Shown here one piece after another: positions 4,500 to 56,172 of a DNA stretch of 64,000 nucleotides. The stretch is from IMG/VR virus record IMGVR_UViG_3300046837_000396, positions 1 to 64,000 of that record; one strand, written 5' to 3'. Source of the DNA: a virus. Its lineage: Duplodnaviria; Caudoviricetes. Made by a program: the position numbers and the translations under genes. Each line of letters begins with the position of its first letter. The stretch's first letter is position 1. Below the pieces are notes generated by a model. It did no database searches. It saw only the letters and a program-made list of their open reading frames with translations, and was not told the origin of the DNA.

Positions 4500-4519
4500 A
4501 CCGCGCCGCGCGGCGCGGT
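4500..4519. repeat. GC palindrome ACCGCGCCGCGCGGCGCGGT, copy 1 (intergenic)
   Basis: Perfect 20-bp palindrome between divergent genes. Confidence 0.95.
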
Positions 4520-4533
4520 GGTAGGGTTTCGGG

Positions 4534-4821
4534 ATGGGAATCGCGATCTGCCCGAAGTGCCTCGCGAGCGGCGAGGAGCACGACCCGCGGGGATACACGA
4601 AGCGCGCCTGCGGGCTCTGCGGGGGCGAATGCCTGGTCGACCAGGCGGTCCGGCACCGCTGGATGGTCGAGAACGGCCAAGCGCCCTTCGGGCTCGACGA
4701 AGAGGTGACGCGGGTCCCGTGTCCCAGCTGCAATCCCTGCCGGTACTGCGAGAACGAGCGGTTCGTCGACGCCGCGGAAGCGGAAGTGATCCGGGCGCTC
4801 CTGCTGGGAGCCAAGCCTTAA
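4534..4821 (+). CDS. Cys-rich zinc-finger-like protein
   Basis: Four CxxC pairs; TAGGGT-N6-ATG leaderless start. Confidence 0.65.
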   Translation: MGIAICPKCLASGEEHDPRGYTKRACGLCGGECLVDQAVRHRWMVENGQAPFGLDEEVTRVPCPSCNPCRYCENERFVDAAEAEVIRALLLGAKP

Positions 4822-4823
4822 CG

Positions 4824-5015
4824 ATGCTGCCGTGCGGATGCACCAGTGAGGCCCCGTGCCCGGCGGCCGCTTGGCTGTTCCGACGCCAGAAGGTCCGGGG
4901 GTACGAGCTTCATCTCCGGTATGCGGTCGAGCGCCAGGAAGCGGACCTGCGGCGGGACGAGCGACGACGCGCGGCCGATGCCGCCCGGCTCGCCCGAATC
5001 GTTACGCGGTTTTGA
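4824..5015 (+). CDS. hypothetical protein
   Basis: Starts 2 nt after the previous stop. Confidence 0.5.
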   Translation: MLPCGCTSEAPCPAAAWLFRRQKVRGYELHLRYAVERQEADLRRDERRRAADAARLARIVTRF

Positions 5016-5060
5016 CCGACCTGGTTGCGGGGTCCGGGCGCGGCCCGCTACCCAGTAGGG

Positions 5061-5420
5061 ATGCAGACACGGCTCGTCGGTCCCGACCACGATATCCCGA
5101 TGGCGATCCTGCCGAGCGAAGCCAAGGGGGATTTGCCGGCGCTCGACCCGGTCCAGTACGCGGTCGTCCTGACGGATCGAAAGCAGATCGTTGGGTTCCT
5201 CCGGTACGAGTTCGATGAACTCGGTCAGCTTTGTGACGCCGGGACGTGGGTCGCGAGTTCCCTACGGGGCAAGGGCATCGGGTCTCGACTGTGGAGGTAC
5301 CTGCTCCGGAAGGCTCGCCCGCGGGCCGTCTGGGTCCGGGCCGTCACGCCGGGCGGGCGCGCCCTCATCACGGGGCTCGTCCGCGAGTTCCCCCGGATCC
5401 GCTGGACCGTCGCTGGGTAA
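5061..5420 (+). CDS. GNAT-family acetyltransferase
   Basis: TWVASSLRGKGIGSRL acetyl-CoA motif A. Confidence 0.8.
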   Translation: MQTRLVGPDHDIPMAILPSEAKGDLPALDPVQYAVVLTDRKQIVGFLRYEFDELGQLCDAGTWVASSLRGKGIGSRLWRYLLRKARPRAVWVRAVTPGGRALITGLVREFPRIRWTVAG

Positions 5421-5507
5421 AACGGGGAACGGCTGTATTCCAACCTTCGGGATAGACGCGGTGGTGGGTGCCCCCGCGGCAGTCCTGGGCGCGTTCCCCG
5501 CCGCCCT
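5415..5507. ncRNA. candidate structured RNA
   Basis: CGGGGAACG (5423-5431) pairs with CGTTCCCCG (5492-5500) and encloses internal hairpins; strand uncertain. Confidence 0.4.
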
Positions 5508-5561
5508 GTTGTCTTATGGCGCCTAGTTACACACGACGCGCAACGACCCGTTCGAGACAAC

Positions 5562-5846
5562 TCAATTCGGTTTCCGAAGCTCGTGTTCGACTAGGTTCAC
5601 ACCCGCCTCCGCGGACCCTCGCGCGACGCTGAGGAACCCAAGCGCGTTCCGGAGCACGAACCGGCACGCCATCGCTTCCCTCGACGAGAGCACTACCTCG
5701 CCGTCGTGGAGGAGCACGGTCTCGTCGCCGGCAGCGAACGACCCAGCGTAGCGACCGCCCTTCGTCACATACAGACCCCGCGGATCGTTCTCGCGATCCG
5801 TCACGATGAGCAGGACGTCCTCGAGGACCGAGACGACAACAATCAT
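5562..5846 (-). CDS. hypothetical protein
   Basis: ORF with AGGA SD-like sequence. Confidence 0.55.
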   Translation of the reverse strand: MIVVVSVLEDVLLIVTDRENDPRGLYVTKGGRYAGSFAAGDETVLLHDGEVVLSSREAMACRFVLRNALGFLSVARGSAEAGVNLVEHELRKPN

Positions 5847-5988
5847 CGCGGCTTCCTGTACTGCCGGTATGCCTCGCGGCCATTGAGCCACGCTCGGTGA
5901 CACGCGTACCCGAGAAGAAACAACAGAGCTACGTCGCTCACGACCTGCGAAAGTTCCCCAGCGGAATAGGCGATGTTCATCACAACCG

Positions 5989-6795: not shown

Positions 6796-7094
6796 GACGC
6801 TCTCCCGAGAATCTCGCGGAGTTCCGCGTTCCTCGCGTGCTGACGCGCTACCGCGCCCTGTTGAATCGCCCAGCCGATCCGGGACTGGATCGCGCTCATC
6901 TGGGCCCAGCGGAAGTCTCGAACCTCGGAAGGCTCGTGCCCGACGAGTCGGTTACCGGCCCGGTAGGCAGCCTCGACGGCCCTGTAGAGCGGCTTCGGGT
7001 CCGCGCCGTCCGCGACCGCGTGAAGGAGACGCGAAGCCTTTCGGCGAGCCGCCTCGAACGCCTTGATTCGTTTCTCGATAGTGTCGTCGGTCAT
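6792..7094 (-). CDS. hypothetical early protein (leaderless)
   Basis: ATG 6 nt after TAGTAT. Confidence 0.7.
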   Translation of the reverse strand: MTDDTIEKRIKAFEAARRKASRLLHAVADGADPKPLYRAVEAAYRAGNRLVGHEPSEVRDFRWAQMSAIQSRIGWAIQQGAVARQHARNAELREILGRAS

Positions 7095-7912
7095 GATCCA
7101 ATACTAGCGTGTCTAGACACGGTGTCTAGACAATTCGTCGCCTCCAGGACAGCTTCCCGAAGCCTACACCGGAGCTGGACCTCGATCTGCCGGATTCGTT
7201 CCCGCGAGACCCCGAGCTGCGCCCCGAGCTCCCGGAGCGTCATGGGATCCTCCGCGAGGCAACGAGCGTCGAAGATCACCCGATCCCGCGGCCCGAGTGA
7301 CCTGCGGAAGCGCCTGATGGCCTCCCGGCCTAGCTGGAGCCGTTCCTGATCCCCCAGCGCGTCCTCGGGGCTCCCGGACGGGTTCTCGAGGCAGTCACCA
7401 AACGTCACGCCCTCGAGGCCATTGCGGGCCGGACCTTCGGTCGAGATCGACCGGGTCGCGAGCAGCGGCAGGAGTGCGCGGGCCCGCCCGATCGGCATCC
7501 GGGCCGCCTCCGACATCTCGTCGGGCGATTGGCTCTTGGTCTTCCGCCACCACCTGAGCGCGGCCCGCTCCCGAGCGCTCTGACCGATCCGGACGCACCG
7601 GTGAAGCCGGAAGACCGCGTCCTGAACCTTCGAGCTACAGGCGGTTGTCGCGTAGGTCGAGAACCGGATCCCGCGGGCCGGGTCGAACGACTCGAGCGCG
7701 ATCAGGATTCCCTCAACCGCATGCTGGACGAGGTCGTCGACCGGGATCCCGAAGAACCGGTACCGGCGAGCCGTCAGGGACGCGACCCAAAGGTGCCGGC
7801 GTACGAGCTCGTCGCGCGCACTCCTATCCCGCTGGTTTAGTTTCCTGAAGAGTTCCTGCTCCTGCTTGCGCGTCAGCGGTTCTGTCGTCCCGTACAGGTA
7901 TTGGGGGCTCAT
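7091..7912 (-). CDS. RNA polymerase sigma-70 family factor, RpoH/SigB-like
   Basis: Region 2 (DDLVQ...FDPARGIRFSTYA) and region 4 (TLRELGAQLGVSRERIRQIE). Confidence 0.92.
   Translation of the reverse strand: MSPQYLYGTTEPLTRKQEQELFRKLNQRDRSARDELVRRHLWVASLTARRYRFFGIPVDDLVQHAVEGILIALESFDPARGIRFSTYATTACSSKVQDAVFRLHRCVRIGQSARERAALRWWRKTKSQSPDEMSEAARMPIGRARALLPLLATRSISTEGPARNGLEGVTFGDCLENPSGSPEDALGDQERLQLGREAIRRFRRSLGPRDRVIFDARCLAEDPMTLRELGAQLGVSRERIRQIEVQLRCRLREAVLEATNCLDTVSRHASIGS
7101..7137 (-). promoter_or_regulatory. promoter with tandem operator, copy 3 (inside the sigma gene 3' end)
   Basis: Boxes at 7109-7120 and 7122-7133. Confidence 0.8.
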
Positions 7913-10801: not shown

Positions 10802-10807
10802 GAGTAG

Positions 10808-10844
10808 ACTCTACCGTGTCTAGACATCGTGTCTAGACAATTCG
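10808..10844 (-). promoter_or_regulatory. promoter with tandem operator, copy 4
   Basis: Boxes at 10816-10827 and 10829-10840; -10 TAGAGT. Confidence 0.8.
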
Positions 10845-12338: not shown

Positions 12339-12962
12339 TCAGCGATGGCGCCCGTGCGCGAGCCCGACAGATCCCGAGAGCGTACTGGTGAGCTGGTTGC
12401 CGTGGGGATCCTGGGGGACCACTCGACCCCGGTACTGGACGTGTCGGATCCCGGCCCGCGCGGCGTGCTCGCGCTCGTACCGGTCGAGCTCCTGGTGGGT
12501 CATGGCCGTCAGGTTCTTATCCCGCCCCTTTTGGACGAAGTAGTTCGACCCCGGCCCCATCCCGGGCTTCTGAGGGATCCGGCGTCCATTGATGAGCTTC
12601 CGGGGCGGCAGCGGGAGCTCGGGGCGTCCCTGGGCCCGCCGGAGCGCGTTCTCGTGCTCGGGGGTCCACCGCGCCGCGCGGCGCGGTGAGTTGGCGGACG
12701 CGATGAGGCCCTCCCGGAGGGCCACTAGTGTCTCCTGGGCCGTCGGAGCAGCCGGGGCACGAACGATCGGCGGCGGAAGCTTCCGGTGTCTCGGCGGAGC
12801 CCCCGGGGCATCCCGGTGCCGGACCTCACAGCCGAGCGCCGCCCGCTCCCTCTCGTAGCGGTCGCGGGACCGACACCGCTTCGAGCAAAAAGGGGTTCGG
12901 TTCGCGAGGAACTCTTTTCCGCAGACCCGACACGTCAGCCTATTGATCGGTTGTTCCTTCAC
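12339..12962 (-). CDS. hypothetical protein with CxxC...FCSxxC Zn finger
   Basis: CRVCGKEF...FCSKRC; GTG start. Confidence 0.55.
   Translation of the reverse strand: MKEQPINRLTCRVCGKEFLANRTPFCSKRCRSRDRYERERAALGCEVRHRDAPGAPPRHRKLPPPIVRAPAAPTAQETLVALREGLIASANSPRRAARWTPEHENALRRAQGRPELPLPPRKLINGRRIPQKPGMGPGSNYFVQKGRDKNLTAMTHQELDRYEREHAARAGIRHVQYRGRVVPQDPHGNQLTSTLSGSVGLAHGRHR
12668..12687. repeat. GC palindrome, copy 2
   Basis: 20/20 (22 bp with flanks); read as PRRAAR. Confidence 0.95.
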
Positions 12963-14621: not shown

Positions 14622-14821
14622 TACCGCGACACCTTTAGGACGATCCGACGATCCTGACAGGCTCGGATCTCGAGGTGTTCACGGTGCCGGACCGCTCGGT
14701 CCGCGCAGGGTCGGCACGACGGGATCGTGGCCGGGATCCCGTTGGTCGAGTTCGGCACCTTCAGATCGACGAGTGCGTCGCAGAAGTAGCAGCCGTTCCG
14801 GCGCCCGGTCCCGTCCTTCAT
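14621..14821 (-). CDS. small Zn-finger-like protein
   Basis: CYFC...CRPC. Confidence 0.55.
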   Translation of the reverse strand: MKDGTGRRNGCYFCDALVDLKVPNSTNGIPATIPSCRPCADRAVRHREHLEIRACQDRRIVLKVSR

Positions 14822-15342
14822 CTCGATACCCAACCTTGGTCGGACTTTATCCGAAGCTTGCCCTCCACCGCGCCGCGCGGCGCGGTGCCGAGGAGTCGGT
14901 GAGCGCCGTCGAGCGCCTTCTCGAGCGTCGTGTCGAAGACCCGCCAGATCCCGCGCTTCTCGGTCGCGGCGACGTCGACGTAATACTGAAGCTCGGGTTC
15001 CCACGCGACCTCGATGACGGCCGGGTTCCCAACGAAGTAACGTTCGCGGAACCACTGCCCGAGTCGATACCAGTCGCCCTCACCGGTCCAGAATAATTCC
15101 TCGAGACCGTCGAATCCCCATTCGAACGCGCACCTACTATCGAATCGTTCGACGACGAGCGCGTGATGGGGTTGGCGGGTAGTAGCTCGCCCGTCCGTGA
15201 CGATCGTAACGGCCCCGAGGGGGCAGTAGGTTCGGCTCAGTAGATCGTGAAGGCCCCAGTTAGCGCCGATCCGCCATCCCCTCCGGATCGCGTGCTCGCA
15301 GAACGCCTCGAGTTCCCGCCTGACGAGTTCGATCGACTTCAT
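14818..15342 (-). CDS. hypothetical protein
   Basis: CPLGAV...FEWGFDG; ATGA coupling. Confidence 0.65.
   Translation of the reverse strand: MKSIELVRRELEAFCEHAIRRGWRIGANWGLHDLLSRTYCPLGAVTIVTDGRATTRQPHHALVVERFDSRCAFEWGFDGLEELFWTGEGDWYRLGQWFRERYFVGNPAVIEVAWEPELQYYVDVAATEKRGIWRVFDTTLEKALDGAHRLLGTAPRGAVEGKLRIKSDQGWVSR
14867..14886. repeat. GC palindrome, copy 3
   Basis: 20/20 (22 with flanks); read as TAPRGAV. Confidence 0.95.
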
Positions 15343-18690: not shown

Positions 18691-18945
18691 CTATACCTCC
18701 TGACCGCGCCGCGCGGCGCGGTGGATAAGGGTCGCGACTACGGCCTTCCGCGCGGCCGACCGGGTAGGAGCGGCGATCAAGAGGAGCGGGCGGGAGCCGT
18801 CCGGCATGATGGGGCGGCACGCGACCGCCTCGAGCAGCCGCTGCGGCACCATCGCGTCAGGGTCCGAGGTAAAGTGGCCGTACTGGAAGCGCGGTAGGCC
18901 GGCCTTCCGCATGATTCTTCTGTGGCGACGTCGACGGGGGTTCAT
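18691..18945 (-). CDS. hypothetical protein (leaderless)
   Basis: GCGCCATC 7 nt upstream. Confidence 0.5.
   Translation of the reverse strand: MNPRRRRHRRIMRKAGLPRFQYGHFTSDPDAMVPQRLLEAVACRPIMPDGSRPLLLIAAPTRSAARKAVVATLIHRAARRGQEV
18703..18722. repeat. GC palindrome, copy 4
   Basis: 20/20; read as HRAARRG. Confidence 0.95.
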
Positions 18946-21907: not shown

Positions 21908-22118
21908 GTTTCCTCCTCTGGATGCTGATGCCTTCTGGGCCGCAACAGTAGCCCTCCGGACATAGCGCCCCGGGGGCACCGCAGTCATCACGCGGTGGGC
22001 ACCGCCAGCCGGGTGCGCACGGGATTGGGGCATCCGGGTCGGGGTCCAGCGCCTGCACCGCGCCGCGCGGCGCGGTGCAGGACCAGAAGAGCAGCGCGAT
22101 TACGTAGCGGGCCCTCAT
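21885..22118 (-). CDS. small Cys-rich putative lipoprotein
   Basis: MRARYVIALLFWSC signal-like N-terminus. Confidence 0.5.
   Translation of the reverse strand: MRARYVIALLFWSCTAPRGAVQALDPDPDAPIPCAPGWRCPPRDDCGAPGALCPEGYCCGPEGISIQRRKRGEDGGR
22057..22076. repeat. GC palindrome, copy 5
   Basis: 20/20; extends to a perfect 30 bp (22052-22081). Confidence 0.95.
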
Positions 22119-25697: not shown

Positions 25698-25717
25698 ACC
25701 GCGCCGCGCGGCGCGGT
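25698..25717. repeat. GC palindrome, copy 6
   Basis: 20/20 (24 with flanks); 18 bp upstream of the HTH gene. Confidence 0.95.
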
Positions 25718-32599: not shown

Positions 32600-33214
32600 T
32601 CAACGGGGCCGCGTCAGGACTTCGGTCCCGTCCTGCTGGGTCGCGACGACCTTCCCGGCCTCGAACAAGCGGGCCTTCCGCTTCTCATCGAGCGCAATGT
32701 CGACAGCGGCCCGGAATTGTTCGGGCGTCAGTTCGAGCATCACGCGATCTACTGCCTCGACCTGAGCGAACTCGACATTAACCTTGATGGGTTCCTTCGT
32801 TCCCTGAAGGTCCGAGAGGAGCCGCTCCCGCTGCATGATCGCGCCGTGGTCCCAGCTCTTCGACTCACCCGCCCGGAGTTCCGAGAGATCGTTCAGAAGG
32901 CGTTGAATCGCCCACGCCTTCGCCTTCGGGCGGTTTCGTTCTTCTTCCGCGACCCACCGGAGCTTCACGCGCTCGATCATGTGGAGGCTCGCCCGGCGGG
33001 TCATGCCCCAGGTGTTCCGGCAGAACGACACGACCTTCTCGTCCGGCGAGCCCCTCCAGAGAAGCTGGCCGACGAACCTCATCCGGAGCTTCTTGTCCGC
33101 CTCCGAAAGCTGAACCGCGCCGCGCGGCGCGGCGGAAGGCTCCGGCGGTAGGGGTGGTTTCGCGTCTATTCGGCGGCGCCGCATCGGTCGATTGATGTCT
33201 TTACCGCGCCCCAC
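32600..33214 (-). CDS. putative terminase small subunit
   Basis: N-terminal HTH-like region, helical hairpin and LQGTKEPIKVNVE; upstream of terL. Confidence 0.6.
   Translation of the reverse strand: MGRGKDINRPMRRRRIDAKPPLPPEPSAAPRGAVQLSEADKKLRMRFVGQLLWRGSPDEKVVSFCRNTWGMTRRASLHMIERVKLRWVAEEERNRPKAKAWAIQRLLNDLSELRAGESKSWDHGAIMQRERLLSDLQGTKEPIKVNVEFAQVEAVDRVMLELTPEQFRAAVDIALDEKRKARLFEAGKVVATQQDGTEVLTRPR
33114..33133. repeat. GC palindrome, copy 7
   Basis: 19/20; 18-bp core perfect. Confidence 0.93.
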
Positions 33215-38191: not shown

Positions 38192-38394
38192 CGAACGCCT
38201 TTTAAGCGAACTACCCGAATGATATCGATATTCCGATGAAACGTTCTTATGTTTTCTCGAACAAAAGTGCGCGCCTTCTCGGAACTTTCAAATCGTTGGG
38301 CAAAATAAGACCGGTTTGAATAGATAGGGGCGCCGTCTAACCAAGCAACGAACCACTTCTCGCTGCCTATTTTGATAATCCACAGGCACTTCAC
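38188..38394 (-). CDS. small AT-rich hypothetical protein
   Basis: GTGA coupling at both ends. Confidence 0.6.
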   Translation of the reverse strand: MKCLWIIKIGSEKWFVAWLDGAPIYSNRSYFAQRFESSEKARTFVRENIRTFHRNIDIIRVVRLKGVR

Positions 38395-40358
38395 GATATC
38401 ACCCGCGCGGTCGATCCTCGGTCGGTCCCGACGATCTCGATTCTTCCGGGAAACGCGTCGTTCGTCTCGGGCCGATGCGTGATGACGAACGCCTGCCGGA
38501 ACCCGTACCGGCTCGACAGAAGAGACGCGACGTGCGCCGATAACGACCGCTGGTTCGCGCCGTCGAGCGACCCAAACGGTTCGTCGATGAAGCAGGTCGA
38601 CCACGCCGCACTTCGGTCCCGGCGGAGCCAGCGGGCAGCCGATAACTGAAACGCGATCCCGCAAAGGTCATCCGCGCCCCCCGACTTGTCCGAAAGCTTC
38701 AGGTCGAGTCGATGCTCGACGTTGTGGCCGCGAGCGGTCCCGCAGCGCGCGCACTCCTTCACGCGGGCGCTTCTGCCGAACGGAGTCCCACAGGCTTCGC
38801 ACGAATCAGCTAGGCCCTTGCCCTCGTGCCCCCACCGGACCTCCATCCGGAGCCTCATGCCGCAGTCCGCCAGCATCCCGTTCGCCCCGTCCTGAATCGC
38901 GCCGAGTACGCCCTCCGCGATCCTCCGCTGGGCTCCGCCGCGACTGAAGATCGCGAGCGCCTCGCGCGCGGTCGCGAGTTCCTTTTCCCGGGCAGCGATT
39001 CGGCCAACCAACTCATCAGCTCGCCGCTTCCGCTCCCCAAACCCATCGAGCGCCTGCTTGGCCTGCCAGACCCGTTCGCGCGCTTCCGCCTCGACGATCT
39101 TCGCGCTCCCGAGCTCATCGTCGAGTGCCGTCAGATCGACCGCGCCTTCCCGTTCGGCCGCAGCTCTCGCTATCGGTTTGAGCCGTCGTGCCTCTACCCG
39201 ATGGGCCTCGATTCGTCCCTTCAGGTCGTCGCGCTTCCGCAGCACGGCCTCTGTGCGAACCAACGTGGTTGCGTCGTCGCTCGCCTGTTTCTTCGCGACC
39301 CCGTACCGGGCCGACGCGTCCTCGAGCAGCTTCAGATTCCCTGCCCTATCGGCATTGATCTGTTTCTCGATCGGACACGCACAGCCGGCAACCGGGCATA
39401 CACCGTCGAACTTCCCGCGGGAAAGTTGGTCTTTCGACCTTACCTCCTGGTAAAGGGTTCGCTCGACCGCCAACGACGCGTCTCGCGCCTCCCGTGCCTT
39501 CGTGATGGCGGTAGTGACTTCGAGCTCGGACGGCATCGCGGCGAGCTCGGTCGCCATCGCGGTCCCTTGATCAACCACCTCTCGGAATCTCGCAAGGTCG
39601 CGCTGACCGGTCCGGGCCGCGACCGCTGCGTCGCGACGACCCGATACTTCCAGGACTACCCGGGCCGCGGCATCGAGCGAACGGGACGCATCCTCGAGTG
39701 CTTTTTGCCAAGAAGCCTGCACGACCTCGACCGGGTCGCTACCAGGGTCGCCTTTCAGTTCGGACCCCGTGAGCCGATTGAGCTCGGACCGGTCCGCGTC
39801 CTGAAGATCCGCGAGTCCTGCGGCCTTCGCCCTCAGGATCTTCTCGCCCTCCTGGACGGGTGCGAACCTGAGCCACTCACCCACGATCGCGATCCGGTCG
39901 GCTGGTTTCGCCGAAACGAACCAAGACGTCTTTTTCTGCTCGACGTACGGGCCGCGGCAAAAGTCCCGTAGCGAAAGCCCAACGCGCTCGCATATGATCT
40001 GTTGGGCCTCATCCCCGGTCGCCTCGCCGATACCCGGAATCTGGACGACGAGCTTCGTCGGACTTCCGCGCCGGCGCGAACGCGTTACCGTCATGGGCTC
40101 GTCGCCATCTTTTAGCAGCAGACGGACCGAACCGGACCGTTCGCCGTCCGTGATCCAATCGTCCTCGTATTCCTTGCGGTGCTGTCCGTAGAGACCAAAC
40201 AAGACCGACTCGACGAACGAACTTTTACCCTGCCAGTTCGAGCGGTCCGCTTCGTCCTGCCGACGCGCGACGATCGAGTACGCTTTCGGCTCCAGCGCCA
40301 GAACCTGCTGGCCCCGGTAGCAGAGCCAATTCTCAAGTCCGATCTCGGTGACGATCAC
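38391..40358 (-). CDS. SbcC/Rad50/gp46-like ATPase
   Basis: LENWLCY, QGKSS, coiled coil, KSGG signature, IDEPFGSLD, VITH. Confidence 0.9.
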   Translation of the reverse strand: MIVTEIGLENWLCYRGQQVLALEPKAYSIVARRQDEADRSNWQGKSSFVESVLFGLYGQHRKEYEDDWITDGERSGSVRLLLKDGDEPMTVTRSRRRGSPTKLVVQIPGIGEATGDEAQQIICERVGLSLRDFCRGPYVEQKKTSWFVSAKPADRIAIVGEWLRFAPVQEGEKILRAKAAGLADLQDADRSELNRLTGSELKGDPGSDPVEVVQASWQKALEDASRSLDAAARVVLEVSGRRDAAVAARTGQRDLARFREVVDQGTAMATELAAMPSELEVTTAITKAREARDASLAVERTLYQEVRSKDQLSRGKFDGVCPVAGCACPIEKQINADRAGNLKLLEDASARYGVAKKQASDDATTLVRTEAVLRKRDDLKGRIEAHRVEARRLKPIARAAAEREGAVDLTALDDELGSAKIVEAEARERVWQAKQALDGFGERKRRADELVGRIAAREKELATAREALAIFSRGGAQRRIAEGVLGAIQDGANGMLADCGMRLRMEVRWGHEGKGLADSCEACGTPFGRSARVKECARCGTARGHNVEHRLDLKLSDKSGGADDLCGIAFQLSAARWLRRDRSAAWSTCFIDEPFGSLDGANQRSLSAHVASLLSSRYGFRQAFVITHRPETNDAFPGRIEIVGTDRGSTARVIS

Positions 40359-40750
40359 AGCTTCACCTCGGTCATCACGGACTCGCAGAGCGCGACGAGC
40401 GCCGGTCGGTTTTGCGTCGGAACCTCGGCCGCCATCGCGACGATCACGGCGCGCGCACCAGGACATTCGGCCGCCGGTTCGGTTTGGCCGACCGGGACCG
40501 CGCCGCGCGGCGCGGCCGGCATCGGCCTTACGGCCTTCGCGATTCCCTCAAGGGCCTTCAGGGCAAGCTCGATCTCTTTCTCGCCGGTGCCGGCGGGAGG
40601 AAACAGGCGAACGAGGGACCCGACCGGAACGAGATCGCGATCGTGGGTATCCCAGAATGGGCTATCGGCCGAGATCGTTACGACCTCGCGCGCGTGCTTG
40701 TTCAGAACCTCCGTTACCTTCACGGTCTGCTGCGGTTTCCGCCTCGCCAC
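40355..40750 (-). CDS. probable detached C-terminal part of the SbcD-like nuclease
   Basis: In frame immediately after the TAG of the nuclease gene; own GGAGG SD. Confidence 0.55.
   Translation of the reverse strand: MARRKPQQTVKVTEVLNKHAREVVTISADSPFWDTHDRDLVPVGSLVRLFPPAGTGEKEIELALKALEGIAKAVRPMPAAPRGAVPVGQTEPAAECPGARAVIVAMAAEVPTQNRPALVALCESVMTEVKL
40497..40516. repeat. GC palindrome, copy 8
   Basis: 19/20; 18-bp core perfect. Confidence 0.93.
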
Positions 40751-41488
40751 CTAGACCTCCACGATCGCGCAGCCAGGTTGGTTCTGCTCTTCGCCGAACG
40801 AAAGACGCTCGAGAGATCCCGGCATGAAAACTTCGCCGACCTGCTGTCGCTTGTGGTAGTGGCCGTTTAGGCAGAACCGGCGAGGCAGTAGCTTCACCGC
40901 TTCTACCGGGAACCGAACGTCGCGACCCCGCGGCATGTCGAGCGTCTCGGACCCCAGTAGAGCACCCTCGACCTGAAGGTGGCCGAGCACGACGTGGAAC
41001 GTATCGGTCCCGCGGGAGCGTTCCCCGAATCCCTTTACGACCGCGTGCGGATCGTACGCGCGAGAACGTGCGACGAACGGAAGTGCACAAAAAAGAAACC
41101 CTCCTTCGACCCCACCTCGGTTAGGGACCGTGAGCGCACCTGGTTCCTCGAACACGACCGTCTTGTCGAGCTTCGCCTCCGCGAGCGGCGTTAGAGTCGT
41201 GTTACCGGTACCGTCTTCGAGAACGTCGTGGTTACCCGAGATCCAAAAGTTCGGGATCCCGTTCTGTCCGAGGAACCGGGCGATCTTCAATGAGAGCGCG
41301 ATCCCCCGGATGGTTCCGACGGCCGATAGATCGGGATCGCAAAGGTCACCGTTGAAGCAGTAGAGATCGACGCCTTCCCGGACCGCGAGCTCGGCTGTCG
41401 CCATCGCGGCTCGCTCAACATCACCGGCACGTCGATACCCAGCCGTCACGGCGTCGACGTGCCAGTCACCTGTGGTCAGGAATCTCAT
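40751..41488 (-). CDS. SbcD/Mre11/gp47-like metallophosphoesterase
   Basis: GDWH, GDLCD, GNHD, GHYH, PGSLERLSFGE. Confidence 0.92.
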   Translation of the reverse strand: MRFLTTGDWHVDAVTAGYRRAGDVERAAMATAELAVREGVDLYCFNGDLCDPDLSAVGTIRGIALSLKIARFLGQNGIPNFWISGNHDVLEDGTGNTTLTPLAEAKLDKTVVFEEPGALTVPNRGGVEGGFLFCALPFVARSRAYDPHAVVKGFGERSRGTDTFHVVLGHLQVEGALLGSETLDMPRGRDVRFPVEAVKLLPRRFCLNGHYHKRQQVGEVFMPGSLERLSFGEEQNQPGCAIVEV

Positions 41489-47142: not shown

Positions 47143-48219
47143 CTAAACCTCTGAGAGCGGATCTTCTTTCTTCACGTCGACCTTCAAAACAAGACCGGCG
47201 CTTCCTTCGAGAATCGTGAACTCCATCACGACACCGTTGTCGAGATCGAGTCGGCAGGTCGGAAGGTCCACGATCGCCTTCGCCTTCTGGGTTGGGTCGT
47301 CGCGCTTCATCAACCCGAGGTTCTTCACCCCGAGCGTTAGGGCCGCCGCGATCGCGCCAGCCGGGAGCGCGCGGCGCCCGGGGGCTCCGTCGGGCATCTC
47401 GCGCCGACCAGTCTCGCGCCGCGGAAGGTTCAGCCGCTTTACCTCAGCCTGAACTTCGCGCGACGATAGCCCTTCGCGCTCGATCTTCTCGATCAGCTTC
47501 TTTTGTTCTGCTTCGTCCGAAACCCGTAGGAGCGCGACGACCTTGTGGGTTCCGAGCTTCTTGGCCTGTTCTTCCGTGAACCGCTTCGAGATGTCCATGT
47601 ACCGGTACGCGGTCGATGGGTCGATCCCGATCTCGGTGACGACGAATTGATTGAACCCGCGGTACGACTGCTCGCCTTCTTGGTCACGGCGGAGCCTCCA
47701 GCCCTCGCTGTGAAAGACTTCCGCGATCTTCTTACCGAGGAGCCACTTCGACGCCTCGACACCCGCATTCAGCGCCAGAATATCGCGAACCGCCTCGTCG
47801 AGTTGGCGAAGCAGATTCCCCTCGTCGACCGTCAGGTCGGCCTTCTGGGCCGGTTCGGTTTTCGGCTCGGGTTTCTTCACGATCTCGGTCGAAGGTTTCG
47901 ACTGCTTCGGGCGCTTTACCTGCGTGAGCTTCTGGGGCTCCTTCGGTTTCTCCGGAACGCCCGCCTCATCGTCGCCTCGGCCGCAAAACGGACACCCCGG
48001 GAGGTCAACGTCGGAACCCGCAAGACAGAGATCGCACTCGACGAAGTTATCCGGGTTCGTGATGTTCCGGAGGTGGATCTGGAGTAGACCGGCTCGGTTC
48101 GCGAACTTCGCGCCGCGCGGGATTCCCTTCACGCCGAACTTCTTGATTGCCTCGTCGACGAGGGCCTCGTTCATGTGTTCGACCCGGAACGCCGGCGTCG
48201 CGATCGCTTCGCTACTCAT
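47143..48219 (-). CDS. DNA-binding protein with ParB/Spo0J-type HTH-like region
   Basis: GIDPSTAYRYM...HKVVALL...EQKKLIEKIEREGLSSREVQAEVK; N-terminal CxxC pairs. Confidence 0.6.
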   Translation of the reverse strand: MSSEAIATPAFRVEHMNEALVDEAIKKFGVKGIPRGAKFANRAGLLQIHLRNITNPDNFVECDLCLAGSDVDLPGCPFCGRGDDEAGVPEKPKEPQKLTQVKRPKQSKPSTEIVKKPEPKTEPAQKADLTVDEGNLLRQLDEAVRDILALNAGVEASKWLLGKKIAEVFHSEGWRLRRDQEGEQSYRGFNQFVVTEIGIDPSTAYRYMDISKRFTEEQAKKLGTHKVVALLRVSDEAEQKKLIEKIEREGLSSREVQAEVKRLNLPRRETGRREMPDGAPGRRALPAGAIAAALTLGVKNLGLMKRDDPTQKAKAIVDLPTCRLDLDNGVVMEFTILEGSAGLVLKVDVKKEDPLSEV

Positions 48220-48244: not shown

Positions 48245-48931
48245 TCAGGCCGCCATCCGTTCGATGTCCGAAACCGTGCAGCCGATATTGATCAGCGCTT
48301 GGTTGATCATTCTGGTCGCGATCGGTCCGTCGATTCCGGCGAACAGCTTCCCCGCGACCTCCCGCACCGATCCACCCGTCGCTACAAGGGCCTCGAGGAT
48401 CGAGCGATCGAACGTCGTTCTGCACCGGGCCAGTATGGCGCGAACCTCCGCAACCCGTTCTTGGATCGGTTCCGCGACGACCATGTCGGCGGGATCGAAT
48501 CCCCCTTCATCGACACCCCGCATCGACGAAAACGGGACCGCGTACCGCGATGGGTTCTTGTCGCGCGTGCCGTGCTTGTTGCACTGGCGGGCGCGGTGGG
48601 CTTCCGCTTTGCCGACAACTCCCGCCCCATAAAGTAAAAACCGCCCGATCGAAACACCACGCGAAGGATCGAATTCGGCGAACTTCTGCCAGACCGCCAC
48701 CGCCATCTCTTGCTCGACGTCCTCGGCACCCGTGGGGGCCTTCCAGCGCCGTAGAATCCAGGCCGCTTTTGCCGCCAACACGGGACGCGTTTGCTTGTAA
48801 AAACACTCGAACGTAATTCGGCCGTCTAGACAAGCTTGAGCTAATTCCTCGAACGAACCGCCGACCGGCGTGATGGTTTTGAGAGCTCGGTCGAGCGCTA
48901 CCCGCGCCCCGGGTTCGTACCGTCTCCTCAT
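48245..48931 (-). CDS. divergent sigma-70-like factor
   Basis: AEDVEQEMAVAVWQKFAEFDPSRG region 2; SVREVA HTH. Confidence 0.7.
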   Translation of the reverse strand: MRRRYEPGARVALDRALKTITPVGGSFEELAQACLDGRITFECFYKQTRPVLAAKAAWILRRWKAPTGAEDVEQEMAVAVWQKFAEFDPSRGVSIGRFLLYGAGVVGKAEAHRARQCNKHGTRDKNPSRYAVPFSSMRGVDEGGFDPADMVVAEPIQERVAEVRAILARCRTTFDRSILEALVATGGSVREVAGKLFAGIDGPIATRMINQALINIGCTVSDIERMAA

Positions 48932-49318: not shown

Positions 49319-49545
49319 CAGGTGTCTCGCGGCGGAGCCAGCATGGCGGTCACGATCGCCTTTTGGCGCGCGAGCTCGGCCCGGAGTCCTTTACGAGTCA
49401 CGAGCTCATGGAGGTACTTCTCATGAAGTCCGAGCAGGCGTGCCGCGCCGCTGTATGTGCAGCCTGCTTTTACGTACTGGGCGACCACGTATCGGCGAGC
49501 GGCTTCGGGATCAACATCGAACAAGTTGCCTAGGTAGGACCACAC
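49318..49545 (-). CDS. Fis-like HTH protein (paralog)
   Basis: GCTYSGAARLLGLHEKYLHELVTRKGL. Confidence 0.75.
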   Translation of the reverse strand: MWSYLGNLFDVDPEAARRYVVAQYVKAGCTYSGAARLLGLHEKYLHELVTRKGLRAELARQKAIVTAMLAPPRDT

Positions 49546-50492
49546 GATCGGATCAGTTCTCCTAGATAGGATGGCGCGACCGTTGCGGGATCGGAACCTT
49601 TCGGGAGTTCGACGCGTCCGAATTCGACATGTCGGATCAGCGCAGCCCTCATTCGGTCGGCGGCCGCCTCGCCGGCGAGATCCGGATCCGTAAGGGCCAG
49701 GACTCGTCCGAACTGCGCAAGCTTGAGGATCTGGCCGAGATTAACCTTCGAACCCGAGAGGGCCGCCACCGGGAGACCCGTCGCCCTACGGGCCGCCATC
49801 GCGTTAAGGGCTCCTTCGGTCGCGACGACCGTCTGACCGCGCCGCGCGGCGCGGTCGGGCCAGAGATGCTCGCCGAACATACAGGAGTGGTCGGGACCTT
49901 CTTCCTCCGAAGCCGACAGATACCGGACCATCGCGCCGACGAACGTGCGGGCTGTGTAGTTTCCAATCCGACCCCGTTCGTCACGAGCCGGGAATACGAT
50001 CCGGCCCTGAAGTCGCCCCTCGACCGCGTAGCCAAGCCCCCACTGTTCGACGTCGCGTTCATCGAACCCGCGCTGCTCGACCAGGTATCGACGCGGCGTT
50101 GGGGCCCACGACGCGAGCGGGAGAACCAATACGGTCGCGGGTAGCCGGAACCGCGGCGCGACTGCCGGCTGAACGTTCACGATGAGACGCTCGACCCGTT
50201 GGCCGGCCCCCATCGCGTTCTGCTCGATCCACGAAACCGCCTCACCGGGACCCGAGAACCCATAGATCCGGACGACGAGATCGATCGCGGTCCCGCCCCA
50301 CTTACAACTGTGGCAGTAGTGAACCCCGTGTTTCTCCTGGCCCGGTACGTCTTTGATTCGCCAGGACGGTCGACGGTCTGCGTGACGGCCCCCGGGGCAG
50401 GTCGCGAGCCAGGTGTCGCCGTCGTGGGTCGCCTCGACCCCGAGCTCCGCGAGGAGCTTCGGAACGTCGACCGCGAGGGGGTCGTAACTCAA
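49530..50492 (-). CDS. DnaG-type DNA primase
   Basis: CP...H...PSW...YCHSCKWGG Zn finger; GRIVFP; ATEG; DPDLAG Toprim. Confidence 0.9.
   Translation of the reverse strand: MSYDPLAVDVPKLLAELGVEATHDGDTWLATCPGGRHADRRPSWRIKDVPGQEKHGVHYCHSCKWGGTAIDLVVRIYGFSGPGEAVSWIEQNAMGAGQRVERLIVNVQPAVAPRFRLPATVLVLPLASWAPTPRRYLVEQRGFDERDVEQWGLGYAVEGRLQGRIVFPARDERGRIGNYTARTFVGAMVRYLSASEEEGPDHSCMFGEHLWPDRAARRGQTVVATEGALNAMAARRATGLPVAALSGSKVNLGQILKLAQFGRVLALTDPDLAGEAAADRMRAALIRHVEFGRVELPKGSDPATVAPSYLGELIRSCGPT
49836..49855. repeat. GC palindrome, copy 9
   Basis: 20/20 (22 with flanks); within primase, read as DRAARRG. Confidence 0.95.
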
Positions 50493-51925: not shown

Positions 51926-51928
51926 CCG

Positions 51929-53156: not shown

Positions 53157-53157
53157 C

Positions 53158-54660
53158 TCAAGTCCTCCTGATTCCGCCCCGGTAAGCCTTCTCGCGCTTC
53201 AGATACTCGTCCGCCGGCACCCAGACCTGTCGGTCGAGCACGACAACGTCGTCGTTCCAGCGCGCGAGATTCTCGACCGCCTTCAGGCCCGTGATGGCGC
53301 GATCCCAGAGGTAATAGAGCCTCGCGCCTTCCTTGCCGGCCGAGGTCCGGCAGAACCGACCCCGGACCTGCCCGAGGAGCTGTTCGTTCCCGATATGACT
53401 ACACAGGACGGCGCGGTCGAGCGTCGGAACGTCGATCCCGGTCCCGACCGCCTTGATGGTCCCGACGACCGTTCGGATCTTCCCCGACGCCGCGTTCCGG
53501 ACCGCTTCATCGAACTCGCGTTCGTTCTCCGGTCCCCCCACCATCACGCCAGGCGGGAACCCTCGCGCCACCAGCCCCGCCGCGAGCCTCTCGCAGGCGG
53601 CACGTCGGTCAGCCAGGAGGGCGACGACGTGGCCCGCACGGGCCTCCTGGGCCGCAAGGTCGGCCGCTATCGTGATCCTACCGGGGTCGGTCGCGAGTTC
53701 ACCCTGGAGCTTCGTGTGGGCCCACCGGATCCGGAAGGGGTTCCCGGACGCCTTCGCCTGCCGGTACCAACCGGGGGGCTCGTAGCCGGTCGGGACGAGC
53801 GCGACCTGTACGTCGTGCACGATTCCCTTCTGAACGACCTCCTGCCGCGGTACCTCCGCGACGACATCACCGAAGAGGTCCCGGATCATGTACTCGCGCC
53901 CGTCGCGCCGGCGTTCGTCCTTCGAGATCCCAATCCGGTACTGGGCCGGGAACGGATCGATCGCCGCGAAGAAAGTGTCGGCGGCCGCCGTCTGGACCTC
54001 GTCAAACACAACGGTCCCGAACATCGCCATCTGGTCCTCCACGAGCGGCCGGATCGCGAGGGTCTTCTGCATCGCGACCGTCAGGGGGGCGAGCCTGCGG
54101 GTCGGGCCCTGCACGATCCCGATGTCGATCTCCCGAAGCCCACATTCTTCCCGGATGCGCTCGACCCACTGCTTCAGGAGTCCCTTCGTGTGAACGATGA
54201 CGAGCATCCAGCGCCCGACCCGACACGCGAGCGCGAGCGCGGCTGACGTTTTGCCCCCACCGGTTTCGGCCCGCAGCAGACAGTTCTGCCGGGCCATCGC
54301 GGCCACGACCATCCGTTCTTGGTGGTCCCACGGTACGCCCCCCTTCGGGTACCGGTGCCGGACCGTCATCGGGCAACCGGACGCGCGCGCGTCGACGACC
54401 CTGTACGGGACTCCGGTCGCGCTGAGGATCCGGCGGACGCGCCCCATCCCGCCCCGCGGGACCGAGATCCCGGAGGGGATCGGGCGCCACGTTACGTCGA
54501 TCTCGCCGGTCGGACCGGGCTGTCCCGGGAGCGCCGGGATTGGGTGTTCGAACTCCCGCTTGAGCGTCGGGAGGGCGGCCGTGAGCTCGTGCGGCGGCAC
54601 CGGACTCGATTCCGGGACCTCCTCGACCTCGACACGGTTCGTGACCGTCACGACCACCAT
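53158..54660 (-). CDS. SF2 helicase (UvsW/XPB-like)
   Basis: AETGGGKT, FDEVQ, RRDG, GTGIDVP, QVRGR. Confidence 0.88.
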   Translation of the reverse strand: MVVVTVTNRVEVEEVPESSPVPPHELTAALPTLKREFEHPIPALPGQPGPTGEIDVTWRPIPSGISVPRGGMGRVRRILSATGVPYRVVDARASGCPMTVRHRYPKGGVPWDHQERMVVAAMARQNCLLRAETGGGKTSAALALACRVGRWMLVIVHTKGLLKQWVERIREECGLREIDIGIVQGPTRRLAPLTVAMQKTLAIRPLVEDQMAMFGTVVFDEVQTAAADTFFAAIDPFPAQYRIGISKDERRRDGREYMIRDLFGDVVAEVPRQEVVQKGIVHDVQVALVPTGYEPPGWYRQAKASGNPFRIRWAHTKLQGELATDPGRITIAADLAAQEARAGHVVALLADRRAACERLAAGLVARGFPPGVMVGGPENEREFDEAVRNAASGKIRTVVGTIKAVGTGIDVPTLDRAVLCSHIGNEQLLGQVRGRFCRTSAGKEGARLYYLWDRAITGLKAVENLARWNDDVVVLDRQVWVPADEYLKREKAYRGGIRRT

Positions 54661-54677
54661 TGCGGCCGAGATGGCTC

Positions 54678-54697
54678 ACCGCGCCGCGCGGCGCGGT
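54678..54697. repeat. GC palindrome, copy 10 (intergenic)
   Basis: 20/20. Confidence 0.95.
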
Positions 54698-55010
54698 CTT
54701 CGGGATCGCGATCGGCGGGATCGTCCGCGGATCGTCCGTATACCGTTTTCCGGATCGTCCGTACGGATCCGCCTACTGATCCGGATCACGTTCCCGCCGA
54801 TCGATCACGCGCCCATGTGGAGTTTGCGACAAGCAAACCCACATACGTGCTTCGCGCAGCGAAGCACCCTCACCCTTTACTGATCTAAGAGATCTGGGAG
54901 ATCTAAGAATCAAAGAAACATATAAAAGAACAAGCAAATGAGGTTGGATACTGCGTATCCAACCACTCTTATCCCATCCCCCCTACCCCCCTTCCCAGGA
55001 TGGCGCCCAA
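54698..55010. other. putative replication origin
   Basis: 13 GATC; 3x GGATCGTCCG; 3 tandem GATCTNNGA; A-rich tract; two GCA-loop hairpins; G4 tract. Confidence 0.6.
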
Positions 55011-55031
55011 CAGGGTCTGGCGCCACCCACC

Positions 55032-55268
55032 CTACTGCTTCGTCGGTTCGTCGGGCCAGGTGTCGGCGATCTTCTGGGCCTCGGCCGACGCGTTCTTCTG
55101 AACCTCGTCGAGCGCTTCTCGGATCCCGGCTTCGTTGAACGCGGCCTTCAGCCCATCGAGCAGCGCCGCAAGCGCGGCCCCGCGGGGCCCCGGGATCATG
55201 TGCGCGACCTCGTCGAGCAAGAACAGAGCGTGGTCGGCTTCTTCGACGATTCTTCCTAAGTCGATCAT
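55032..55268 (-). CDS. hypothetical protein
   Basis: ATGA coupling. Confidence 0.6.
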   Translation of the reverse strand: MIDLGRIVEEADHALFLLDEVAHMIPGPRGAALAALLDGLKAAFNEAGIREALDEVQKNASAEAQKIADTWPDEPTKQ

Positions 55269-55525
55269 TCGGTCCCCCCATCGAGGTCGCGGTGACGGCC
55301 GCACTCGAACGTTAGGTTACAGGTCGGGTTCTCGGCGGCAGCACGGGCCTTCGCGGCAGTACACGAAAGACCTTCGGCGGCACCGGCGCGGAGCCGCGCG
55401 AGGTAGCGCTGGCACGAGATCTCCTCGCCCGCGCGAGCTGCTTCGGCCTGCCCGGTCTGGCCGGGGTCGGACGAGAGGGCCGCACAGGCCCCGAGGAGGA
55501 ACAGGAACGGGTAGGCTTTTTTCAC
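55265..55525 (-). CDS. putative lipoprotein (possible o-spanin)
   Basis: MKKAYPFLFLLGAC lipobox; next to holin. Confidence 0.55.
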   Translation of the reverse strand: MKKAYPFLFLLGACAALSSDPGQTGQAEAARAGEEISCQRYLARLRAGAAEGLSCTAAKARAAAENPTCNLTFECGRHRDLDGGTE

Positions 55526-55526
55526 A

Positions 55527-55811
55527 TTACCTCTTCGCGAATGCGGTTTTGAAGGTCGAGACGTTCTGCGCGATCTCCATGAACCCCGAGCCCGCGAGCC
55601 CATAGAGGGCACCGGCCTTTAGGGTCTGTCGGACTGTATCGGATGCGTCGCCGAATAGATACGAAACCGCGAAACCGGCCGCGAGCGCGACCGCCAGTAC
55701 CCAGACGCCGTCGATCTTCGGAAAGGTCGTGCGGGCAGCCTTTACGGCCGAGATGACGGCCGGGACCGCGAGGGTCGCGCTACTGACTCCCGTGACGATG
55801 TCGGCGTCCAT
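55527..55811 (-). CDS. putative holin
   Basis: 94 aa; 2-3 TM segments; GLAGSGF; basic C-terminus. Confidence 0.7.
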   Translation of the reverse strand: MDADIVTGVSSATLAVPAVISAVKAARTTFPKIDGVWVLAVALAAGFAVSYLFGDASDTVRQTLKAGALYGLAGSGFMEIAQNVSTFKTAFAKR

Positions 55812-55848
55812 GCCGAGAATTCTGCGTGGTCCCGGGGGACCGTTCAAC

Positions 55849-56172
55849 TCACCGCGCCGCGCGGCGCGGTGCCGGCGATGGGTTCTGGGCCCGGTATTGG
55901 TCGAAGTCCTTCCGCAGCTGGGCGAGGTCGGCCTCCAGGGTCGCGATCGTCAGTTCCCTCGATTCCCGCTGAACCTCGAGGAGCGCGATCCGGTCACGGT
56001 CGACAGTGGCTCCCGCTTGGGTCTGGTAGCGGGTATCGAACTGGGTCATGAGGCCCCCGAGCCACGCGTGGCCGCCCCATCCGGCCGCCACGGATGCCCC
56101 CACGACCCCCCAGAGCTTCCAGACCCAACCGACGCGGTCAGAAAGATTCCGAATGTACGAGTCGCGGGCCAA
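55849..56172 (-). CDS. TM plus coiled-coil protein (lysis-associated?)
   Basis: N-terminal TM then heptads. Confidence 0.55.
   Translation of the reverse strand: MARDSYIRNLSDRVGWVWKLWGVVGASVAAGWGGHAWLGGLMTQFDTRYQTQAGATVDRDRIALLEVQRESRELTIATLEADLAQLRKDFDQYRAQNPSPAPRRAAR
55851..55870. repeat. GC palindrome, copy 11
   Basis: 20/20 (22 with flanks); includes part of the TGA stop. Confidence 0.95.

Follow-up and report, generated by a model that had tools for sequence, protein, structure and literature searches.

Why does a tailed virus carry the same all-G/C palindrome over and over along its genome, and what might read it? The question is raised by IMG/VR virus record IMGVR_UViG_3300046837_000396 (Duplodnaviria; Caudoviricetes; 96,181 bp), whose first 64 kb (64,000 nucleotides, hereafter the window) hold dispersed copies of the palindrome ACCGCGCCGCGCGGCGCGGT (hereafter PAL, the name also used for its counterparts in related phages). 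The original prediction, made from the letters of the window, was a genome-wide site array of the KorB/Noc kind, with selection acting on the DNA itself. Our analysis confirms that the array is real and genome-wide, and it supports selection at the DNA level. Our preferred explanation, which we hold as falling just short of probable, is that the PALs form a DNA-level array of sites for one sequence-specific, symmetric, dimeric protein of the phage. The literature searches yielded no description of this phage clade or of these palindromes.

A palindrome repeated across the genome

ACCGCGCCGCGCGGCGCGGT was found at all 11 predicted starts in the window (Table 1). Nine copies are exact, and the two at 19 of 20 positions carry a final C instead of T. 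The 18-bp core, which had been called invariant, is indeed exact in 11/11 copies of the window and in 16/16 copies of the whole genome. The nested 12-mer and 14-mer are confined to the 11 copies within the window, where the nested 10-mer has one further occurrence (12 in all). Gaps between neighbouring copies in the window measure 1,173–9,339 bp, in line with the 1.2–9.3 kb first given. The ends of the record overlap by 127 bp, and the assembly is therefore circular. The claim that flanks extend the symmetry up to 30 bp holds for the copy at 22058, which is the widest; symmetry reaches 22 bp in 6/14 copies and 24 bp in 2/14, and extension beyond 20 bp is near chance.

An origin by chance, composition or assembly, for which the GC-rich DNA (64%) could speak, is effectively refuted. 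Only 0.01 copies were expected in the window against 11 seen, and 0/100 dinucleotide-preserving shuffles gave 11. Counted over the full genome against a background, as had been proposed, the 16 copies compare with 0 for the reversed pattern. Independent assemblies agree: the phage DNA is present in 24 soil or rhizosphere runs, none of which is listed as RNA, copies 12669 and 18704 are covered by contigs from runs not flagged as source, and the same sites occur in four further IMG/VR contigs of near-identical phages. The proposed check of bacterial DNA also came out in favour of the array. A search of 596 Gb of bacterial and archaeal genomes gave about 100 exact matches to the 20-mer, single per contig and scattered over many unrelated high-GC taxa among the matches listed, and per base the 20-mer is roughly a million times rarer there than in the phage. 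This rarity, together with the single copies, indicates, for the genomes searched, that PAL is no host repeat.

The positions of the copies changed the picture given by the original prediction, according to which most of them lie inside unrelated genes. Genes were called with a codon-usage model made for this analysis, and each site was checked by third-position GC (GC3) in three frames. The genome has 143 called genes, of which 137 are on the minus strand, and is 90% coding. Named by the start of the 18-bp core, 10/16 copies are intergenic (4501, 12669, 22058, 25699, 33115, 54679, 66120, 79349, 89456 and 92525) and three lie within the last 22 codons or fewer of the upstream open reading frame (ORF; 14868, 18704 and 55852). 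Of the remainder, 82591 is in a weak ORF, 40498 is ambiguous and 49837 alone lies truly within a gene, that of the primase. ORFs run through the palindrome because an all-G/C sequence has no stop codon in any frame, and the copies are readable in three frames because of their placement at junctions. With rough gene calls, 9/16 copies are not wholly in a gene, compared with 14% of random positions (P = 1e-4).

Several copies have distinctive surroundings. The primase copy coincides with a 4-residue insertion that the orthologue in the related phage G001 lacks, which is the outcome, for this copy, of the proposed check on orthologues for absence of the encoded peptide. At 89456, 92525 and 66120 the palindrome either overlaps the upstream stop or follows it by 0–6 nt. 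TTGAAC and a second small GC palindrome follow three sites of this phage (55852, 89456 and 92525). Copy 10 marks the edge of a 335-nt non-coding gap, in which three short direct repeats (CGGACGATCC-like, window 54698–54770) lie directly upstream of PAL 54679 and of the DEAD-box helicase gene. These repeats may be what was first described as a putative origin; iterons and a promoter region are both conceivable readings of them.

Table 1. Palindrome copies in the phage (G000), the candidate reader gene, and the palindromes of related lineages. Positions in the window and the genome count from the first letter of the record; (-) and (+) denote strands.
Feature	Position or genome	Strand	Match or sequence	Context or copy number
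PAL copy 1	4500..4519		20/20	Divergent 380-bp non-coding gap between genes 3820-4152 (-) and 4534-4821 (+); 15 nt upstream of plus-gene ATG; followed by TAGGGT-N6-ATG
PAL copy 2	12668..12687		20/20	Intergenic; upstream frame stops 38 nt before, another frame codes after
PAL copy 3	14867..14886		20/20	Last ~22 codons of ORF 14818-15342 (-), stop 47 nt after; next gene from 14821
PAL copy 4	18703..18722		20/20	Last ~9 codons of ORF 18691-18912 (-); then AGGAGG...ATG of next gene
PAL copy 5	22057..22076		20/20, symmetry to 30 bp	Intergenic, 39 nt past stop of HNH endonuclease gene 22115-22726 (-)
PAL copy 6	25698..25717		20/20	Intergenic, 21 nt past stop of UvrD-like helicase gene 25738-27174 (-)
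PAL copy 7	33114..33133		19/20	In longest ORF 32600-33214 (-); coding signal (GC3 0.96) downstream only; probably upstream of true gene start
PAL copy 8	40497..40516		19/20	Between SbcD (40751-41488) and SbcC (38391-40358 or alternative ATG 40466); in doubtful 131-aa ORF, context ambiguous
PAL copy 9	49836..49855		20/20	Inside primase gene 49530-50492 (-), just before Toprim motif
PAL copy 10	54678..54697		20/20	Intergenic, 18 nt upstream of ATG of DEAD-box helicase gene 53158-54660 (-)
PAL copy 11	55851..55870		20/20	Last 6 codons of ORF 55849-56091 (-), stop directly after; then TTGAAC, second small GC palindrome, CAGAAT-N7-ATG
Genome copy 82591	82591			Inside weak 92-aa ORF ahead of portal gene
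Candidate reader p358	47143..48219	-		358 aa; predicted ParB/Noc-like fold; putative link to the palindrome
G000	This phage, 96 kb		ACCGCGCCGCGCGGCGCGGT	16 copies
G001	65 kb		TTGAGGTCGACCTCAA	27 copies
G006	100.6 kb, complete		ATTGGAAACCCGGGTTTCCAAT	18 copies
G007	91.6 kb, 98% complete		AGTCGAGGCCCGGGCCTCGACT	17 copies plus one variant
G008	40.8 kb		GTGAGGTCGACCTCAC core	14 exact 16-mers, 15 of inner 14-mer
G009	Fragment		TTGCGGTCGACCGCAA	4-5 copies
G010	Fragment		GACGGCGCCCGGGCGCCGTC	3 copies

Palindromes of related lineages

The array is shared by related phages in kind and differs from lineage to lineage in sequence. G001, found by a search with the family-B DNA polymerase (PolB; 40% identity), carries a different palindrome, exact in 22 copies and extended to 20 bp in 20. 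A profile of the major head protein gave 71 loci, of which 10 have a repeated palindrome of at least 16 bp, and these 10 represent seven lineages including G000, whose head proteins are all 47% or more identical to that of G000. Each of the six related lineages has its own perfect palindrome of 16–24 bp, different from that of G000 (Table 1), and the 22-mer copies are identical in 18/18 cases in G006 and in 17/18 in G007. The palindromes of other lineages include A/T, so the absence of A/T from the core, to which the original prediction had drawn attention, is not a general property. Over the seven lineages the palindrome centres are GCGC, TCGA and CCCGGG, all self-complementary; the centre CCCGGG, found in three lineages, resembles the centre of the Noc site. 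The half-site GAGGTC/GACCTC is common to G001 and G008, and G009 has GCGGTC/GACCGC; to judge by these sequences, the related half-sites look as would be expected of a drifting protein specificity.

Outside this clade the picture changes. No such repeated palindrome was found in locus L036 (53% identity) or in any locus at or below 46%, and the complete, more distant relatives G011–G013 (89–94 kb) have no palindrome array over their whole length. Avoidance of restriction sites around the palindrome centres was considered and rejected, the centre hexamers occurring at the expected frequency elsewhere in each genome. As a separate observation, the PAL-less 94-kb genome G012 (L224–L228) has 0 GTCGAC sites compared with about 47 expected, a clear case of restriction-site avoidance.

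The preference for gene junctions recurs in the relatives. Sites not wholly in a called gene make up 23/27 in G001, 13/18 in G006 and 10/18 in G007, against a background of 12–15% of random positions (P from 8e-16 to 7e-5). Stop-codon-hugging copies (gaps of 0–6 nt or overlap) account for 13/27 in G001 and are also seen, with 0–6-nt gaps, in G006. Palindromes stand in divergent gaps of G007 (18912 and 79150) and at called convergent junctions of G001 (6265 and 40111) and G007 (3815 and 87313). The interval from SbcD to SbcC contains a PAL in 4/4 genomes (loose windows), and in 3/4 a PAL stands at the 3' end of PolB. In G001 the palindrome directly follows the PolB stop. Within SbcC of G006, the site corresponds to an insertion of four residues immediately ahead of the Walker B region. 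It was also observed that the PolB ORFs of G006 (55986–58709) and G007 (54610–57381; L106 and L111) have no stop at the end of the PolB homology and read through the palindrome into a protein-like extension of 64–77 residues.

Spacing along the genome is regular as well. The gaps are more even than chance in 4/4 genomes tested, with coefficients of variation of 0.54, 0.64, 0.57 and 0.40 and P values of 0.0001–0.013 against uniform placement and 0.0001–0.026 against random gene junctions. Site numbers in the three complete or near-complete genomes are 16, 18 and 18, which corresponds to one site every 5–6 kb. Such regular spacing is atypical of operators that serve particular promoters; it fits a role in insulating or organising the genome. 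Palindromes of G001 and G008 often have, 5–14 nt further on, a -10-like box (of the TAGCCT or CATCAT type), with a start codon 5–8 nt past the box; this combination occurs at 7/27 sites in G001 and 5/15 in G008, compared with 1–2% of random windows, and would give leaderless mRNA. Since the distance between palindrome and box is variable, the palindrome overlaps the -35 region in the manner of a repressor site and does not resemble a fixed element of the promoter.

Many strain variants of the phage are present in soil runs. One of the four further IMG/VR contigs mentioned above, G003 (L027–L029), is 100% identical to the phage over the 26.4-kb structural region (genome 69753–96181) and shows only 78–98% identity, with insertions and deletions, against genome 1–16818 (the early region). 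Judged from the alignments, this pattern indicates recent modular recombination.

A candidate reader and the competing explanations

A first question is whether the palindromes act as DNA or as RNA. In every lineage the central 4–6 nt are self-complementary, which a hairpin loop does not need, and this favours double-stranded DNA recognised by a symmetric reader. We consider it unlikely that the palindromes act instead as RNA hairpins for termination without a U-tract, for protection of the upstream mRNA from 3' exonucleases, or for processing by a sequence-specific RNA-binding protein or RNase. As RNA, they would form GC-rich stems of 8–10 bp with 4-nt loops (GCGC, UCGA or CCGG), and these stems are stable (-11 to -16 kcal/mol). 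Many copies lie 0–6 nt past, or overlap, the upstream stop codon, some are at the convergent junctions of G001 and G007 given above, and a genome with 137/143 genes on one strand needs insulation between transcription units. However, only the GC-rich hairpin of an intrinsic terminator is present and not its 3' U-tract: at least four T in the 8 nt past the palindrome were found at 1/94 sites in five genomes, and the mean T count after the palindrome is at or below background in 3/5. Within each genome the copies are identical and show no compensatory changes, and no Rfam family matched within the window. Furthermore, copies occur where a terminator is useless or harmful, i.e., in divergent gaps (4501 in this phage; 18912 and 79150 in G007) and inside the primase, SbcC and PolB ORFs. 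To rescue the RNA explanation, a sequence-specific RNA reader would be needed.

For an array of DNA sites, a perfect palindrome without a spacer calls for a symmetric dimer of helix-turn-helix domains, and the product of one window gene, p358, is the likeliest candidate. This protein matches no Pfam family above threshold; its match to HTH_ParB is weak (E = 0.0017; 18.9 bits, under the cut-off of 22.6). It carries a CxxC...CPxCG zinc ribbon. The AlphaFold model, built from a 78-sequence alignment with a mean pLDDT of 83, consists of N-terminal helices and the zinc ribbon (residues 10–80), a disordered linker, a helical domain (133–263), a linker and a C-terminal beta domain. With Foldseek, the top 13 PDB rows were all DNA-binding domains of Noc, ParB or Spo0J (E 0.02–0.2), and the top 12 rows of VIA-align all belonged to the ParB family (Z 9.4–11.5; root-mean-square deviation 2.2–2.9 Å over 96–117 residues). 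Residues ~131–267 are predicted to be a ParB/Noc-like DNA-binding domain. A homodimer of residues 288–358 was predicted with a score of 0.64 compared with 0.01 for the best control; the runs agreed in at least 98% of contacts, and the partner pLDDT was at least 81. The mark used for homodimers was reached by 20/30 proteins solved as one-chain pairs and by 1/23 solved as single chains. This modelling predicts a symmetric homodimer formed through the C-terminal domain. No ParB_N/CTPase domain matched at E ≤ 1 in the p358 proteins of G000, G006 and G007. The original singling out of this gene for binding tests is supported by its predicted ParB/Noc-like domain and homodimer and not by a ParB_N domain.

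The distribution of p358 follows that of the palindromes in the genomes compared. Homologues stand in the same place, in the order late-type sigma, p358 and PolB, in G001, G006 and G007, which are the three PAL-bearing relatives covering the p358 region (3/3). No homologue was found in the complete PAL-less relatives G011–G013 by two profile searches and tblastn. The whole block of SbcCD, UvsX, PolB, p358, sigma and DnaB is specific to the PAL-bearing clade. Searches for further p358 loci yielded known relatives only in IMG/VR, four short metagenome loci, and two matches in a word-based protein search. That p358 is the PAL reader is a tentative assignment, which we regard as doubtful rather than probable.

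A search of BFVD with the p358 model gave weak matches only, including DUF3102 proteins. The Cluster O mycobacteriophage Ryadel, which has 31 dyad repeats, is represented among these weak matches by an uncharacterised protein of 237 aa (E 0.06, prob 0.60); the similarity of the models might hint at a shared type of reader.

Taken as a mechanism, the preferred explanation would work as follows. A dimer encoded by the phage would dock on each PAL, and reader and sites would co-evolve, the sites being lineage-specific. The likeliest docking protein would be p358, with its ParB/Noc-type helix-turn-helix, a dimerising C-terminal domain and no CTPase domain. Bound complexes would then occupy gene junctions at intervals of about 6 kb along a genome with nearly all genes in one direction. 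There, as a roadblock or operator, they could keep transcription of one unit from running on into the following one and control initiation of the latter. We infer protein binding, p358 as the binder and a transcriptional role, and that the PALs serve as insulator or operator seems to us the more doubtful part. The most far-reaching version is unlikely as a whole. In it, a DNA-binding protein of ParB/Noc fold, deprived of the CTPase clamp or without one from the start, and about 17 lineage-specific perfect palindromes at even intervals would divide the ~96-kb one-directional genome into insulated domains. The system would be inherited with a T4-like block for recombination, replication and late sigma, and its sites would be renewed by in-frame copy-paste, even into essential genes.

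Several observations weigh against this explanation or its parts. The positions of sites are not conserved between lineages beyond chance, and sites turn over; a correspondence of PALs at orthologous junctions was rejected, with overlaps of 0–6 compared with 1.1–3.8 expected (pairwise hypergeometric P 0.11–1.0 on shared gene ends). Position turnover and in-frame insertions mean that sites arise anew, and a 20-bp site is hard to build by point mutation. A promoter box after the palindrome was also rejected as a general rule, being present at 0/16 sites in G000, 1/18 in G006 and 1/18 in G007, and the hugging of stop codons is equally expected of an RNA 3'-end element. As to the reader, VIA-align gave KorB a Z of 6.1 and the unrelated Raf1 a Z of 9.1, and helical folds under Z 13 need caution. 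With 1,572 representative clusters matched by its profile (672 at E ≤ 1e-30), the p358 family greatly exceeds in size the PAL-bearing clade as known to date. About 20 proteins share the presence/absence profile of p358, which makes its link to the palindrome circumstantial. Finally, the distant p358 homologue locus L236 (14.7 kb; 27% identity), the one independent distant locus with enough flank, has no dispersed palindrome.

The turnover of positions also brings in a self-propagating or recombination-driven palindromic element, spread by copy-paste or marking hot spots or module boundaries, perhaps linked to SbcCD/UvsX. In T4-type phages, stem-loop/promoter cassettes (PeSLs) are a comparable case of spread. 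The intragenic copies in the primase and in G006 SbcC are 4-residue in-frame insertions, and two metagenome contigs lose similarity to the reference exactly at 18722, the edge of PAL 18704. The PAL-bearing clade is also the clade with the SbcCD-UvsX-PolB block, a PAL separates SbcD from SbcC in every genome compared (loose windows), and the repeats of Cluster O mycobacteriophages, another comparable case, are reported to bound insertions and deletions (PMC4351075). Nevertheless, we think this explanation distinctly unlikely. The gene content was taken from Pfam (E ≤ 1e-3) and PHROG (E ≤ 1e-5) matches of 141 called proteins, the two genes across locus borders (63101–64861 and 79408–80427) being left out of the scan, and neither database yielded a transposase or RAYT-type gene. 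The flanks have no target-site duplication, and structure-specific nucleases need no single invariant sequence. Palindromes of 20–24 bp with GC-rich centres are poor cruciform formers. G003 keeps 3/3 PALs in the diverged first 17 kb, and its block boundaries are not at PALs. Junction bias and regular spacing together imply selection on placement, which counts against such an element.

A strict loading array of the ParB/KorB/Noc type would be another DNA-level explanation, in which a CTP-dependent sliding clamp segregates, compacts or silences the genome. The regular genome-wide spacing, the predicted ParB/Noc-like DNA-binding fold of p358 and two encoded proteins with a ParB_N domain (34446–35126 and 36984–37682) are in its favour. 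Even so, we judge it very unlikely. The N-terminus of p358 is modelled as helices and a zinc ribbon, with no ParB_N at E ≤ 1, and the scans gave no ParA-type ATPase, integrase or plasmid replication gene. The ParB_N proteins, also named as possible readers at the outset, are not supported in that role: homologues of the 226-aa ParB_N protein are present in 3/3 PAL-less relatives, and the two genes flank an epimerase and a TET-associated glycosyltransferase, i.e., a DNA-modification context. These genes are poorer candidates for the reader because of the PAL-less homologues and this setting.

Gene content and known systems

The replication and recombination genes of the phage include those for PolB, a DnaG-like primase, a DnaB-like helicase, and UvsX-, SbcC- and SbcD-like proteins. 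Two genes are sigma-70-like (window 7091–7912 and 48245–48931). A 228-aa sigma-70-like protein, in which Pfam recognises region 2 only, adjoins p358 in all PAL-bearing relatives and may be a late sigma comparable to T4 gp55. Structural genes include those for the large terminase, portal, major head protein and baseplate proteins. Genes for nucleotide and DNA modification comprise a dCMP deaminase, a dNMP kinase and a Dam-type methyltransferase. The deaminase and the kinase are near an island (window 34446–37682) with an NAD-dependent epimerase and the TET-associated glycosyltransferase between the two ParB_N-domain genes. This gene set suggests a sugar-hypermodified cytosine, and a TET/JBP dioxygenase was not among the Pfam/PHROG matches. 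The same scans of 141 proteins gave no integrase, repressor, ParA, transposase or plasmid replication family. No close cultured relative was found by megablast of 20 kb, by tblastn of PolB (best identity about 25%) or by tblastn of the p358 DNA-binding domain (E ≤ 0.1). A profile of the major capsid protein found no prophage copy in 185,579 species genomes, and a search of the last 32 kb of the phage genome for tRNA genes was negative.

A second over-represented palindrome, TGTCTAGACA, was observed in 13 copies compared with about 0.03 expected from base composition (window 1369–1391, 2739–2761, 7110–7132, 10817–10839 and 27221–27243; genome 95363 and 95891; single copy at 16853). The copies are mostly tandem pairs 13 bp apart that overlap a -35-like TAGACA, followed by TAGTGT or TAGTAT, 6 nt and ATG. 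This arrangement looks like six strong "early" promoters for the host sigma, which would yield leaderless mRNA and would each carry a double operator for some other regulator.

Dispersed invariant dyad repeats have already been seen in several phage groups. The comparison is sharper here, with seven lineages that have their own palindromes, complete relatives free of an array, statistically regular spacing and a candidate reader with a predicted ParB fold and no clamp. If the link between p358 and the palindromes holds, the ParB/KorB/Noc way of reading DNA would extend to a clamp-less regulator of lytic phages, and the lineages would be a natural series of matched protein/site pairs in which specificity and dozens of sites change together. 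The array would also be a model for the separation of transcription units in a genome with nearly all genes on one strand.

Compared with known systems, the PALs resemble terminators and REP- or TRIT-like repeats as GC-rich hairpins directly after stop codons. In contrast to these, they have no U-tract, are not repeated in the bacterial genomes searched and have a self-complementary centre. The marks of REP/REPIN elements are likewise absent: the 20-mers are single-copy (~100 contigs in 596 Gb), and no Y1 transposase/RAYT match was obtained.

The sites of KorB and Noc are dispersed palindromes like the PALs. Their reader is a dimer with a ParB-type helix-turn-helix, as proposed for p358, and its binding affects many promoters or a whole replicon. 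According to the KorB paper, CTP-dependent clamp formation is required for the sliding and long-range repression of KorB (PMC11790492). Unlike KorB, ParB and Noc, p358 has no CTPase (ParB_N) domain, and the Pfam/PHROG scans gave neither a ParA/IncC-type ATPase as partner nor KorA. The PALs are also longer, 18–24 bp compared with 13–16 bp, and belong to a lytic-looking phage rather than to a plasmid or chromosome. Membership of the KorB/Noc/ParB family therefore fails for want of the CTPase domain and the ParA partner, and what stands of the original KorB/Noc comparison includes the predicted fold and dimer of p358 and the regular spacing, which fits a loading or organising array.

The stoperators of Cluster A mycobacteriophages (see PMC9283540) are asymmetric and orientation-dependent sites read by the monomeric immunity repressor of temperate phages. 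Like the PALs, they are many copies of one sequence in short intergenic gaps across a phage genome; their co-evolution with the reader and the block of transcription elongation by the bound protein parallel what is proposed for the PALs. The PALs differ in being perfect palindromes, and the Pfam/PHROG scans gave neither an integrase nor an immunity repressor. By analogy, the array may act like KorB/Noc sites and stoperators, although it belongs to neither family.

The closest published analogue of the PAL array, on the published description of the repeats, is that of the Cluster O mycobacteriophages, Corndog and relatives, with 34 copies of a 17-bp dyad repeat (PMC4351075). These repeats are absent from the host; some are intergenic, some lie near 5' ends and others are internal. 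A dimeric protein is proposed there to bind them, and what they do was left open in 2015 (PMC4351075). Both arrays consist of invariant dyad copies spread genome-wide with the same mix of positions, and in Cluster O insertions and deletions are bounded by repeats (PMC4351075). The Cluster O repeat, TGTTCGGNNNCCGAACA, has 7-bp arms and a variable 3-bp spacer as described there (PMC4351075), whereas the PALs are perfect over 18–24 bp and spacer-less. The PALs are further set apart from the Cluster O repeats by a sequence particular to each lineage, by their regular spacing and by a candidate reader with a predicted ParB fold.

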